DNA from: Oscillospiraceae bacterium
GTDB lineage: Bacteria; Bacillota; Clostridia; Oscillospirales; Ruminococcaceae
DNA: 12,127 nt
Assembly: GCA_022511485.1 (NCBI GenBank)
Contig: JAFLUJ010000066.1
Span: 1-12,127, forward strand
Reading direction: 5' to 3'
Both the position numbers and the translations under genes were made by a program. The notes beneath the pieces are model-generated. The model was not told the origin of the DNA and ran no database searches. It was given only the letters and a program-made list of their open reading frames with translations. Positions 3,511-9,259 of this stretch are shown here, piece after piece. The first letter of the stretch is position 1, and every line of letters starts with the position of its first letter.

Positions 3511-3747
3511 TTATTTGTTAGAGAAAATATTGAAATCCATAAGCTTTTGTTTTGAAAATACGGCGGCAAGAGCCATGGGAGCAAGTACTAAGGCTGCTGA
3601 AACGCCTCCGGATACTGCTGCTGCAATGAATATAAGCATAATTACTCCTGCCAGCTTCTGAGGAATGAGGCTGGCTTTTTTTCTGCGGACGGTCATGGTA
3701 ATTTTTTTTGCCTCCGGCATAAGAATTTTTGCATTTGAACCTGTCAT
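3511..3747 (-). CDS. Small (78 aa) membrane protein of unknown function, predicted SOS-regulated
   Basis: MTGSNAKILMPEAKKITMTVRRKKASLIPQKLAGVIMLIFIAAAVSGGVSAALVLAPMALAAVFSKQKLMDFNIFSNK has a basic N-terminus, a ~33-residue hydrophobic core and a short polar tail. The ATG at 3747 is preceded by AAAGGAA (3762-3756) with 8-nt spacing. The ORF-track start at 3819 lies inside the promoter spacer and cannot be transcribed. A dedicated consensus promoter lies 60 nt upstream. I recognise no family, and the coding call rests on the RBS, the promoter and hydrophobicity only. Confidence 0.6.
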   Translation of the reverse strand: MTGSNAKILMPEAKKITMTVRRKKASLIPQKLAGVIMLIFIAAAVSGGVSAALVLAPMALAAVFSKQKLMDFNIFSNK

Positions 3748-3787
3748 TTTGATCGTTCCTTTCTTTTCTTCGGAGACACATATGTTC

Positions 3788-3801
3788 CGAACGAGTGTTC
3801 T
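3788..3801 (-). promoter_or_regulatory. LexA (Cheo/SOS) box 2, covering the predicted transcription start
   Basis: The plus strand reads CGAAC-GAGT-GTTCT, with a full GAAC-N4-GTTC core. It lies 6 nt downstream of the -10 hexamer. Degenerate extra sites flank the pair: ACAC-ATAT-GTTC at 3776-3787 and GAAA-ATTT-GTTCG at 3846-3858. Confidence 0.6.
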
Positions 3802-3807
3802 TTTTAT

Positions 3808-3836
3808 ATTATAGAACAATCGTTCTGGTTTGTCAA
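3808..3836 (-). promoter_or_regulatory. SigA-type promoter (exact consensus) of the small membrane protein gene
   Basis: On the minus strand: TTGACA (3836-3831), a 17-nt spacer and TATAAT (3813-3808). The predicted TSS is near 3801-3800, giving a ~53-nt leader. Confidence 0.75.
3813..3826 (-). promoter_or_regulatory. LexA (Cheo/SOS) box 1, inside the promoter spacer and touching the -10
   Basis: The plus strand reads AGAAC-AATC-GTTCT. This matches the Firmicute LexA/DinR consensus CGAAC-N4-GTTCG in the full GAAC-N4-GTTC core and extends it as a 5+5 inverted repeat. Confidence 0.6.
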
Positions 3837-3871
3837 GAGATTTTGGAAAATTTGTTCGCTAAAATTTGCAC

Positions 3872-3901
3872 AAAAAATCCTCAGATATTTTCTGAGGATT
3901 T
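3872..3901 (-). terminator. Rho-independent terminator (minus-strand orientation) insulating the SOS promoter from upstream transcription
   Basis: A 10-bp stem pairs 3875-3884 with 3892-3901 (AAATCCTCAG/CTGAGGATTT) around a 7-nt loop. On the minus strand the T tract is TTTTTTG (3877-3871); its first three T (3877-3875) complete the stem and TTTG follows. On the plus strand the stem is followed only by ATATATT. Confidence 0.65.
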
Positions 3902-3957
3902 ATATATTATGTATATAAAATCAATGGTTTATATAATTACATTAAAATATTATACTA

Positions 3958-4145
3958 TTTCCCTTTTTAAATATATGGGCTTTGCCCATATATTTAAAAA
4001 GCGCCGTATTGAATACGGCGCAGCGGCGTAGCCGCTGGGAAAGCCGTTCAATACTAATCCAGTCAAAACCAACGGTTTTGACTGCCGCCTGTAAAGGCGG
4101 CTTTACCAATAGACTATGTCTATTGGTAAATTAGGGATTAGTATT
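3958..4145. other. Array of six contiguous perfect hairpins forming two tandem four-way junctions (structured RNA or DNA-level palindromic element, strand undetermined)
   Basis: Domain A has a closing stem 3958-3963/4037-4042 (6 bp). It encloses hairpins 3964-4000 (17 bp, loop TTT), 4001-4021 (9 bp, loop TGA) and 4022-4036 (6 bp, loop GTA), with zero junction nucleotides. A 7-nt linker GCCGTTC follows. Domain B has a closing stem 4050-4060/4135-4145 (11 bp). It encloses hairpins 4061-4083 (10 bp, loop AAC), 4084-4101 (7 bp, loop GTAA) and 4102-4130 (13 bp, loop TAT), followed by 4 unpaired nt TTAG. All 79 pairs are Watson-Crick, with no mismatch or G-T. The confidence refers to the existence of the structure-forming sequence, not to any function. 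Confidence 0.8.
3996..4021 (-). terminator. Probable rho-independent terminator of the Na/Pi transporter transcript (hairpin 2 of the array plus T run)
   Basis: On the minus strand, GCGCCGTAT-TCA-ATACGGCGC (4021-4001, a 9-bp GC-rich stem) is followed immediately by TTTTTAAAT (4000-3992). Confidence 0.55.
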
Positions 4146-5943
4146 ACAAGCTGTATTTTGTCATGTATTGCTCTGTAAGATTAAGATATTCCTCATCACT
4201 GCTTTCGTGCTGTGCCTTGATGTATTCGTGACGGCTGACAAAATCTCTCTTTTTCTGAGCTCCTATGACGTATACCGCAACATTTGAACAGTGGTCGGAA
4301 ATTCTTTCCAGATTTATAAGCAGGTCAAGGAAATTAACTCCGCTTTCAATTATACACTCGCCGTTTTTCAGACGTTCAATATGTCTTGCTTTCAGAGTTT
4401 CGTTGAGATAGTCCACAGTTTCTTCAAGAGGCTCTATCTTTGTGGCGATCTCCACACTGTTGTTTTTAGCTGCCTCCACAGCCATGCTGATGATCTCCTG
4501 GACTGCATCGGAAATAACTCCAAGCTCGTGCAGAGCGCTTTCGGAGAAAACTACGTCCTCCAGACCATGAATTTTTTCCGCGTCCTCTATAAGATTCATT
4601 GCATAGTCTCCGATACGTTCAAACTCGGAGGTCAGATGCAGAAGCTCGGTGACGCGGCGGTTTTCGTAATCGGTCAGACCACATTCCGTAAGCTTTACAA
4701 GATATGCGTTGAGCCTGTCCTCCATGCGGTCGATGGATGTCTCGTTATCCCTGAGCTTACTGACGATCTTGTCGCTGTAGTATTCATCAACAAACAGCTT
4801 GCGCATTTCCTTAAAGTTCTTAAGGGCAAGCTTTCCCATTGTTACAACTGTATTATTTGCCTGCTGTATTGCAAGGGCAGGGGATTTCAGCAGACGGTCG
4901 TCAAGAGTGTCAACAACGATCTCTCCGCCGTCCTCATCGTCCGCCGCTTTATCACGGATCGTAAGGCAGGCAAGCTTTTCAAGGAGTTTTGTAAATGGCA
5001 GGAACAGGAGAGTTACCGTTACATTAAAGAACGTGTGGAAGTTGGCAATTCCGCCCATGTCAATGGTATTTTCCCAGAAGGGGAAGCCGATAGTTGCCTT
5101 TATTGTATACACAACTGCAAGGAACAGCACAGTACCTATGACATTGAAATAAAGGTGAACTGCCGCCGCACGCTTGGCGTTTTTGGACGCTCCCACAGCG
5201 GAAATTATGGATGTAACACAAGTACCTATGTTTTGTCCCATGATTATTGGAAACGCCGCGGAATTTTTCAGTGCACCGCTTTGTGAGATCGCTTGCAGGA
5301 TACCAACAGAAGCCGCGGAGCTTTGAAGTATGGCTGTGACTATAGCTCCTGCAATAACTCCAAGGATAGGATTTGAAAGAGCCGCGAAAAGATCCTGAAA
5401 CTGCTGTAATTCAGAAAGTGGTTTAACGGAATCGCTCATGGAAAGCATACCGGTAAAAAGGATGCCCAGTCCGATAAAGGTCTCACCCAGACTTTTTTTT
5501 ACATCGCTTTTTGAGAGCATATAGATAAGCAGACCGATGATAGAAATTATGGGTGCGAGATATTTGGTATTAAGGAGCTGTAAAATTATGTTTGTATCAG
5601 CGCTGCTTTCCAAGCCAGCAAGACGGAGTATCTGTCCTGTGACGGTAGAACCGATATTAGCACCCATAATTACGCCGATAGCCGAGGAAAGCTTTAATAT
5701 GCCGGAGTTTACCATTCCGACGATGATTACTGTAGTTGCGCCGGAGCTTTGTATAGCGGCTGTGACTACCGCTCCCAGAAAGACGCTTTTGAAAATGTTG
5801 CTTGTAAGACCGGAAAGGATCTTTTCCATCTTACCTCCGGAAACCTTTTCAAGTCCCTTTCCCAGCATTGTTTTTCCGTACATGAACAATGCAATGCCGC
5901 CGAATGCCTGGATCGCTATCAAAAAAATATCGGTACCGGTCAT
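4144..5943 (-). CDS. Na+/phosphate cotransporter family protein with C-terminal PhoU-like domain (NptA/YjbB-like)
   Basis: The N-terminal half is polytopic, with duplicated Na/Pi-cotransporter motifs (GAVVTAAIQSSGATTVIIVGM and GAIVTAILQSSAASVGIL). The C-terminal half is helical, with two PhoU-type motifs (FERIGDYAMNLIED and LERISDHCSNVAVY). I chose the start at ATG 5943 (MTGTDIFLIAIQAFGG). It is preceded by AAAGGAGA with ~6-nt spacing, and the 15 extra basic residues in the ORF track lack an RBS. Stop TAA is at 4146-4144. Confidence 0.9.
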   Translation of the reverse strand: MTGTDIFLIAIQAFGGIALFMYGKTMLGKGLEKVSGGKMEKILSGLTSNIFKSVFLGAVVTAAIQSSGATTVIIVGMVNSGILKLSSAIGVIMGANIGSTVTGQILRLAGLESSADTNIILQLLNTKYLAPIISIIGLLIYMLSKSDVKKSLGETFIGLGILFTGMLSMSDSVKPLSELQQFQDLFAALSNPILGVIAGAIVTAILQSSAASVGILQAISQSGALKNSAAFPIIMGQNIGTCVTSIISAVGASKNAKRAAAVHLYFNVIGTVLFLAVVYTIKATIGFPFWENTIDMGGIANFHTFFNVTVTLLFLPFTKLLEKLACLTIRDKAADDEDGGEIVVDTLDDRLLKSPALAIQQANNTVVTMGKLALKNFKEMRKLFVDEYYSDKIVSKLRDNETSIDRMEDRLNAYLVKLTECGLTDYENRRVTELLHLTSEFERIGDYAMNLIEDAEKIHGLEDVVFSESALHELGVISDAVQEIISMAVEAAKNNSVEIATKIEPLEETVDYLNETLKARHIERLKNGECIIESGVNFLDLLINLERISDHCSNVAVYVIGAQKKRDFVSRHEYIKAQHESSDEEYLNLTEQYMTKYSL

Positions 5944-9150: not shown

Positions 9151-9158
9151 AAAACACA

Positions 9159-9190
9159 ACAGCCGCACAGGGATTTTCCTGCGCGGCTGT
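9159..9190 (+). terminator. Probable terminator after the MBOAT gene (hairpin without a clean U tract)
   Basis: ACAGCCGCACAGG (9159-9171) pairs with CCTGCGCGGCTGT (9178-9190) with one A/C mismatch, around a 6-nt loop. The downstream sequence AATTATCTATT is only weakly T-rich. Confidence 0.5.
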
Positions 9191-9220
9191 AATTATCTAT
9201 TATGATTTACATTACCACAC

Positions 9221-9244
9221 AAACATTTCAATATTGTAATGTTT
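9221..9244. promoter_or_regulatory. 24-bp near-perfect palindrome upstream of the ABC transporter promoter (candidate regulator binding site)
   Basis: AAACATT-T-CAATATTG-T-AATGTTT is self-complementary at 11 of 12 pair positions (22 of 24 nt), with one T/T mismatch pair. It ends 15 nt upstream of the candidate -35. Confidence 0.4.
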
Positions 9245-9259
9245 TTTCACATTAAAAAC

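Follow-up and report, generated by a model that had tools for sequence, protein, structure and literature searches.

A probable low-copy, MITE-like mobile DNA element of gut and anaerobe Clostridia with an interior conserved as structure rather than sequence

The hairpins of IS200/IS605-derived elements and of REP/BIME repeats act as single-stranded DNA. Elements of the REP and IS200 type carry one imperfect hairpin per end or take the form of 20–40-nt palindromes tagged with GTAG/CGTC (PMC3733652), and MITEs are defined by small size, lack of coding capacity, terminal repeats, direct repeats, AT-rich targets and filled and empty orthologous sites (PMC3184786, PMC10969869). We analysed a hairpin block at positions 3958–4145 of a 12,127-nt stretch of DNA (the whole of this stretch is called the window) that is carried by contig k141_465020 (MEGAHIT, 17.5 kb) of ENA assembly ERZ27293306, where the block sequence is identical; the matching MAG in NCBI is labelled Oscillospiraceae bacterium. 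The block is probably a non-autonomous MITE-type mobile DNA element, the interior of which is under constraint, or is homogenised, at the level of DNA palindromes and not of RNA, and our verdict on its family is that it is low-copy, new and MITE-like, with an interior conserved as structure rather than sequence.

On the minus strand, the locus reads as a Na/Pi-PhoU transporter gene, the block, a 48-nt AT-rich spacer, an intrinsic terminator, a promoter and a 78-aa gene. The features are as follows, with element boundaries as predicted from the family comparison below (L numbers designate the loci and contigs compared; R1 to R3 are the covariance models described with the searches).

3511–3836, minus strand: downstream unit, comprising a sigma-70 promoter and a conserved small membrane-protein gene.
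3875–3901, minus strand: the transporter gene's own intrinsic terminator, an 11-bp stem with T6, its position conserved in orthologs.
3902–3949, minus strand: ancestral AT-rich spacer from stop codon to terminator, host DNA outside the element, colinear with the L009 and L012 spacers once the element is removed.
3950–3952: left direct-repeat copy (TTA on the plus strand, TAA on the minus strand), taken as a target-site duplication; TAA...TAA flanks four of four members in B-to-A orientation.
3953–4143: probable mobile element itself, 191 nt (domains A and B, the linker that joins them and a terminal repeat on either side), from the four-member comparison and its absence from orthologous loci.
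3953–3978, plus strand: left terminal inverted repeat, core TACTATTTCCCT, continuing into the 5′ arm of hairpin 1 and aligning with the reverse complement of 4118–4143 (shuffle p = 0.0035).
3958–4042: domain A, with a 6-bp closing stem (TTTCCC/GGGAAA) and hairpins of 17, 9 and 6 bp with 3-nt loops, from folds; model R2 finds the domain in L045, L048 and L027.
4043–4049, plus strand: unpaired linker GCCGTTC, the same in four of four members.
4050–4145: domain B, with closing stem AATACTAATCC/GGATTAGTATT, whose outer 2 bp come from the duplicated TTA, and hairpins of 10, 7 and 13 bp; from folds, with R1 finding L027, L045 and L048, and R3 scoring 94 bits.
4118–4143, minus strand: right terminal inverted repeat, core TACTAATCCCT.
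4144–4146, minus strand: right direct-repeat copy, which is the transporter TAA stop codon.
4144–5943, minus strand: Na/Pi cotransporter-PhoU gene (Pfam PF02690 and PF01895; 599-aa gene call on the source contig), its stop codon being the insertion site.

Folding of 3940–4160 as RNA gave −106.7 kcal/mol on the plus strand (shuffle mean about −50; z −13.3) and −108.1 kcal/mol on the minus strand (shuffle mean about −48; z −12.9), and folding of 3860–4160 with DNA parameters gave a z of −15.6. An earlier note, made from the window sequence alone, had described six perfect back-to-back hairpins in two tandem junctions at 3958–4145; these were reproduced by folding both strands against shuffles, as two tandem modules that each consist of a closing stem round three abutting hairpins, with the same architecture on both strands. 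The count of 79 pairs, all Watson-Crick and free of bulges, wobbles and mismatches (domain A 6+17+9+6; domain B 11+10+7+13), was likewise confirmed. Perfect hairpins with stems of 7 bp or longer all fall within 3875–4130 in the 12-kb window surveyed, and the six hairpin modules showed no recurrence elsewhere in the window or in the loci; GTAG/CGTC tags were absent from the hairpin feet. Open frames across the element had no homolog among 5.8e9 proteins (six-frame translation search, E ≤ 10). No family in Rfam 15 reached its gathering score (the best, Arrc11, gave 28.5 bits against 52). Two candidate sites were rejected, namely a dif/Xer site at 3899–3925, where only the XerD-like half matches, and a circovirus-like nonamer (TAGTATTAC, 4139–4147), half of which is host flank and which is not conserved in L027.

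The block had also been said to abut and overlap the transporter stop codon. The overlap stands, the pairs at the outer edge of the domain B closing stem including bases of the TAA stop (4146–4144), but the extent does not: judged from the family, the element would run from 3953 to 4143, flanked by TTA at 3950–3952 and 4144–4146, in which case the outermost 2 bp of the 11-bp stem use the duplicated target, that is, the stop codon. The transporter gene retains its stop, and the element sits between this stop codon and the native terminator with a second TAA on its far side. Because the native terminator lies beyond it, the element is almost certainly transcribed within the transporter 3′UTR, where it is probably a tolerated passenger that at most adds stable 3′ structure. 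Downstream of the transporter terminator, a consensus sigma-70 promoter (TTGACA-17-TATAAT, 3836–3808, minus strand) precedes the conserved 78-aa small membrane-protein gene (3747–3511, minus strand).

The block is absent in five of five orthologous loci (L003, L005, L007, L009 and L012; transporters 87–93% identical at the amino acid level), in which the order is stop codon, spacer of ~50 nt, terminator, promoter and small gene. The window sequence minus the element and minus one TAA (GTAATATTTTAATGTAATTA...) is colinear with and equal in length to the L009 and L012 spacers, and the tail at 3902–3949 is therefore host spacer and the stop codon was duplicated by the insertion. The predicted junction of a precise-excision allele is CTTGTAATATTTTAATG. 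Empty sites are known for two of the four member loci, the window locus and the L027 locus, giving filled and empty sites of the kind found for MITEs at both; the L027 site is empty in the syntenic L029 (flanks 87–89% identical) and in six more contigs of the same species group (L082–L087). These comparisons count against a specific functional RNA of this locus, as related loci with the same flanking genes lack the block, and they lend no support to the suggestion that it is a structured 3′UTR or small RNA of the transporter mRNA; the other members, moreover, lie beside other genes. A Logan contig from a third run (L008, transporter about 100% identical in amino acids) is without the element and without a further ~36 nt of spacer, and diverges past the terminator; we read it as a probable secondary deletion allele. 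It had been considered as an empty site for an insert of ~235 nt including the AT-rich tail, which was dropped, as the family boundaries make the tail host spacer.

Both block ends are present, with single-base differences, in two independent Logan contigs (L002 and L011, run SRR27406866), and in L002 the right terminal repeat has the variant TATTAATCC. These contigs break inside the block, at 30 nt past position 4141 and at the border of hairpins 1 and 2, and low coverage or a SNP explains the breaks equally well. An assembly or sequencing artefact is barely conceivable: assemblers can create or break palindromes, and both Logan contigs do break within this one, but the block is interior to a 17.5-kb contig, its ends were seen independently in another run with SNPs, and homologs exist in three unrelated assemblies. 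The MEGAHIT contig (k=141) runs unbroken through the element, which argues against near-identical copies at similar coverage in the sample.

Relatives were sought with single-sequence covariance models built from the window copy, one for the stop-proximal module (R1, domain B) and one for domain A (R2). Among 29 orthologous transporter loci from GTDB genomes, all of them MAGs of herbivore- or animal-gut Clostridia, R1 matched L027:14008–14095 (50 bits, E 1e-11), and L027:13926–14095 on its plus strand shares the plan of 3958–4145 on the plus strand of the window: a 6-bp closing stem round three hairpins, GCCGTTC, and an 11-bp closing stem, here starting ATACT and ending AGTAT, round three hairpins. 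The stem sequences of the two are mostly wholly different, and all are perfect. Scanning of JGI metagenome contigs with the conserved-base pattern GCGGCNNNGCCGC-N6-10-GCCGTTC-N0-1-ATACT returned four matches, of which the covariance models accept L045 and L048 and reject L046 and L047 as chance. A third model (R3), built from L027, L045 and L048 only, recovers the window copy with 94 bits (E 1e-23) and adds no fifth member from 567 kb of related loci. No match was obtained for an exact 79-nt stretch in genome contigs, for hairpins 6, 4 and 1 in viral contigs, or for the 21-nt right end in JGI metagenome contigs. Matches in viral contigs to GCCGTTCAWWMYK..GCCGCC..GGCGGC (four, by chance, all rejected by the covariance models) and to GCCGTTCAATACTNAT (33, none of which fits) were discarded. 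Blastn of the block against plasmid and phage collections gave nothing similar, and neither these collections nor the viral contigs contained an autonomous element with matching ends. The family on record comprises four members, each in a different gene context and none a second copy within one genome. No described Clostridial MITE with these features was found in the literature, and the family is, as far as these sequences allow it to be judged, apparently small, divergent and previously unrecognised, from gut and anaerobe Clostridia.

The members and their flanks, the latter given on the strand that runs from module B to module A, are:

Window, 3953–4143: CTTG-TAA-[TACTAATCCC...GGGAAATAGTA]-TAA-TATTTT.
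L045, 670–858, reverse complement: TTT-TAA-[TACTCATCTC...GAGAAATAGTA]-TAA-AAAATT.
L048, 972–1159: TCTA-TAA-[TACTGATTTT...AAAAATAGTG]-TAA-TC.
L027, 13921–14095: CATA-TAA-[TATACTGCCCGC...AGAGCCTATTA]-TAA-TTAC.

With lengths of 175–191 nt (n = 4) and no coding capacity, they lie within the range of MITEs (under about 300 bp). Common to all four are the two domains, each with a closing stem and three hairpins, the linker GCCGTTC and the TAA/TTA flanking repeat, and the ends of all four form imperfect terminal inverted repeats (TACTAWT..). Terminal repeats comparable to those of MITEs are found in the window (26-nt ends against shuffles, p = 0.0035), L045 (p <0.0005) and L048 (p = 0.02), and are weak and not significant in L027 (p = 0.19). 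The end similarity of L045 spans ~40 nt because its hairpins 1 and 6 are near-identical. TAA flanks both ends in four of four members, as for a MITE target duplication, though a TAA target beside an element-borne TAA end looks identical, and so short a repeat (3 nt), taken alone, says little where the DNA is AT-rich. The gene contexts are unrelated to that of the transporter: L027 follows a cardiolipin-synthase-like gene and precedes an AI-2E transporter gene, L045 separates a mannose-1-phosphate guanylyltransferase-like gene from the terminator of that gene, and 17 nt lie between L048 and the ribosome-binding site of the ParB-like gene that it precedes. In every member, module B is on the side that local transcription comes from.

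Such a distribution makes it very improbable that the block arose in place, by template-switch or fold-back replication errors that perfected quasi-palindromes of the ancestral spacer without any mobility: three homologous elements with the same eight helices, linker and ends lie at unrelated loci. MAFFT does set hairpin 6 opposite quasi-palindromic spacer in L003 and L009 (p 0.04–0.07), a similarity that is not significant, and the domain B closing stem does reach into the stop codon, but a tail (3902–3949) that is itself the real ancestral spacer explains the similarity better. MAFFT alignments of the domains were structurally incoherent, and comparisons based on the covariance models and on individual stems were used instead.

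Pairwise identity among the members is 48–69%, and all eight helices are present in each. Of the pairs predicted across the four members, 287 of 288 are Watson-Crick and one is G-T, and stem by stem any two members differ by 20–48 pairs changed on both sides and by 0–1 changed on one side. In the covariance-model alignment of module B (L027, L045 and L048, with the window excluded), pairing extends to 97.5% of cells and both sides have changed in 26 of 41 pairs; none of 500 shuffles reached this, and slid partners were 35–45% paired. The pair counts rest on predicted or model-fitted pairs, so that mismatches become loops, which favours structure; real mismatches are present in the L045 closing stem (one) and in L048 (two or three). 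A bias of this kind falls far short of explaining the effect. Conservation of hairpin number, order and approximate lengths, together with that of GCCGTTC, suggests that the element has a real function. Structured RNAs normally carry several percent G-U. The single G-T in 288 pairs therefore argues against selection on one transcript and fits a constraint that is symmetric for both DNA strands.

This bears on a further explanation, by which the element would be a mobile structured-RNA module, either a 3′UTR stabiliser or insulator or a small RNA with its own promoter, with selection acting on the transcript. The fold is indeed very stable, and the element is always intergenic and co-directional; in three cases it comes after a stop codon and ahead of the next signal, which makes its transcription very probable. 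We nonetheless consider an RNA module quite unlikely, given the lone G-T and the practically complete lack of one-sided changes (0–1 per member pair), an architecture without internal loops or junction nucleotides for a binding pocket, and the lack of any Rfam match. The loops, too, are not conserved. The GTAA loop, on which the earlier note had based a plus-strand non-coding RNA, is replaced by TTC, CGATA and ATT at the equivalent positions, and that reading is not supported. Its promoter fares no better: a −10-like TATACT/TACACT does stand ahead of domain A in three of the four members, but the box is accounted for by the junction of direct repeat and terminal repeat (duplicated TTA joined to TACTAT), and the −35 lies in ancestral host spacer. 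The proposed internal minus-strand terminator (hairpin 4001–4021 and T5) qualifies as such in the window, as the only hairpin that does; it is not conserved, with a T-run in L048 only (4 T) and none in L045 or L027, and the block thus differs from intrinsic terminators, which have a conserved GC-rich hairpin and a U-run. The remaining reading of the earlier note, a nested-palindrome MITE/REP-like element acting at the DNA level, is supported as essentially right by the sequence comparisons, through unrelated contexts, terminal repeats, a 3-nt duplication, empty sites and Watson-Crick-only pairing, whereas the many near-identical copies that it envisaged were not found, the members being few and divergent.

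For the MITE-type element that we favour, the proposed course of events is insertion at the transporter TAA stop, leaving TAA on both sides, and mobilisation by a transposase that another locus would supply in trans. Going by the 3-nt TTA/TAA repeat, our guess at the class of this transposase would be an IS5/PIF-Harbinger-like DDE enzyme. IS5/PIF-Harbinger DDE transposases make a 3-bp TTA/TAA target duplication, and IS3 and IS30 types likewise produce 3-bp duplications. Conservation of the interior fold is not accounted for by a plain DDE cut-and-paste model. The hairpins are probably kept at the DNA level, by either of two routes: copies unable to fold as single-stranded or cruciform DNA would fail to propagate, or template-switch repair inside each palindrome would transfer changes from one arm to the other, intra-palindrome template switching being a known mechanism of quasi-palindrome correction. 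Either route would yield two-sided changes without G-T intermediates.

A bolder possibility, which we put forward tentatively and hold to be rather doubtful, is that the family is a new kind of structure-specified mobile element, whose twin three-hairpin (four-way-junction) fold, as single-stranded or extruded DNA, would together with GCCGTTC be the feature by which an as yet undescribed enzyme recognises and moves it. If so, the stems may drift in sequence while remaining perfect palindromes, as a transposon counterpart of integron attC sites, and were the fold the recognition signal for a transposase or recombinase, it would amount to a new recognition logic for small mobile elements. We think it unlikely that the block is a relic of a single-strand HUH/Y1 transposon of IS200/IS605-like type, moved as folded single-stranded DNA to a position 3′ of ..TAA without a true duplication, its hairpins being enzyme recognition structures. 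Conserved structure without conserved sequence and Watson-Crick-only pairing are as for DNA sites that are recognised folded and single-stranded, a TAA target with an element-borne TAA end explains the apparent duplication equally well, and the co-directionality of the B end with adjacent genes in four of four members would fit strand-specific insertion. Yet three of the four members have inverted-repeat ends, which IS200/IS605 elements characteristically lack, and six hairpins in two junction modules far exceed one subterminal hairpin per end. Nor is there a Y1 transposase gene on the 17.5-kb source contig (window proteins were Pfam-scanned; the other genes are recorded as Peptidase_M78, HTH and fn3 only).

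Taken as a MITE-type passenger, the element is ordinary in kind, as a small intergenic mobile element, and unusual in its architecture and mode of conservation. It shows that a 'designed-looking' RNA-like structure past a gene may be a mobile DNA passenger rather than a regulatory RNA of that gene, a point relevant to the annotation of 3′UTRs and small RNAs in uncultured gut Clostridia. Insertion at TAA that regenerates the stop would be a neat route to harmlessness. The family also offers a clean natural case of nucleic-acid structure conserved without sequence and practically without G-T (1/288), and such structure-only conservation speaks for a constraint, or a homogenisation of palindromes, at the level of the DNA.

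Among known systems, the closest are the bacterial MITEs (Nezha, Chunjie, Correia, RUP and QMITE; PMC3184786, PMC10969869), which the element resembles in its small size (about 175–190 bp), lack of coding capacity, terminal repeats, short direct repeat, AT-rich intergenic insertion, filled and empty orthologous sites and very stable predicted secondary structure. Bacterial MITEs usually form one long hairpin through their terminal repeats and have similar copies within a genome, whereas the element described here folds as two three-hairpin junctions independent of end-to-end pairing, and two-sided changes preserve its fold between members that are about 50% identical. With IS5/PIF-Harbinger and Tourist-type MITEs it shares the 3-nt TTA/TAA repeat at both ends and the preference for AT-rich targets, but its ends are without sequence similarity to any IS5-type end that could be compared. 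IS200/IS605 palindrome-associated elements and REP/BIME with RAYT are alike as non-coding mobile DNA in which hairpins, and not primary sequence, are conserved. The element differs from the former in its inverted-repeat ends, its six perfect hairpins and the lack of a Y1 gene on the source contig, and from REP/BIME, which are high-copy palindromes of 20–40 nt, in being untagged and in having hairpin modules that do not recur in the window or the loci. A related genome (L026) does contain true GTAG-type REPs, of a quite different appearance. Integron attC sites share with the element a folded single-strand structure that is conserved while the sequence is free, but an attC site consists of one imperfect hairpin, has extrahelical bases and R/L boxes, and is accompanied by cassettes and an integrase, none of which is present here.

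In the Logan contig L008 (run SRR27406838; positions 1900-1971), the transporter gene is near-identical to that of the window, while the element is absent together with ~36 nt more of the spacer, the junction TTGTAATA|TACATAAT lying between ATA repeats. This contig also departs from the window sequence right after the terminator hairpin. The allele reflects either a graph artefact or a deletion or rearrangement associated with the palindromes. Two Logan contigs (k=31) from run SRR27406866 both end inside the block, the middle of which is unassembled there, with L002 ending 33 nt past the stop codon and L011 starting at the first base of hairpin 1. These breaks could stem from a drop in coverage over strong hairpins, from strain variants or from other copies. 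The contigs of this run differ from the window by two SNPs, one at 4141 in the terminal repeat and one in the spacer adjoining the left repeat.

Empty sites for the insertion carried by L027, another family member, were present at two loci (L029:13970-13990 and L082:7975-7995) and read AATTA-TTA-TTA-TATG, with two tandem TTA copies versus the one predicted. The tandem TTA could be an excision footprint in which both repeat copies were kept, or merely AT-rich sequence.

Directly downstream of the transporter lies a small gene, conserved at this position in those close relatives that were compared (L003/L004, L005/L006, L007, L009 and L014):

Window 3511-3836, minus strand: small gene unit with promoter, encoding a predicted membrane protein of 78-81 aa

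Its promoter is a perfect TTGACA-17-TATAAT, and Pfam gave no match for the protein. Elsewhere in the window, the trpB ncRNA motif scored below its threshold at 9151-9249 on the minus strand (30.8 bits versus 59). This match covers a hairpin and U-run between the MBOAT and ABC transporter genes and is most likely just a terminator. Beyond the window and ~4-5 kb away from the element, the source contig (L001:12243-13800) carries genes of the Peptidase_M78 (ImmA/IrrE-like) and HTH repressor-like types. This combination is typical of prophages and mobile elements, and no link between these genes and the hairpin element was seen.

A second family of back-to-back, GC-rich hairpins, unrelated to that of the window, was observed in related Clostridia MAGs:

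L014:3720-3945: at least 8 hairpins, z -11
L016:9340-9620, L021:14520-14713, L026:17270-17533, L017:11951-11988 and L006:1-41: further copies

Members share 70-82% identity with compensatory changes and, in contrast to the window family, contain G-U pairs; Rfam returned no match. Several copies are located at contig ends, a behaviour of repeats. The family could represent either an RNA not yet described or a further mobile array of hairpins.

GTAG-tagged REP-like palindromes (TGTAGGGGCGGA...TCCGCCCCTACA) were also observed at L026:11800-12065 as well as in L022 and L035, recurring within and between these genomes. At L026 they lie immediately 3' of the orthologous transporter stop, the same position as that of the window's hairpin element.
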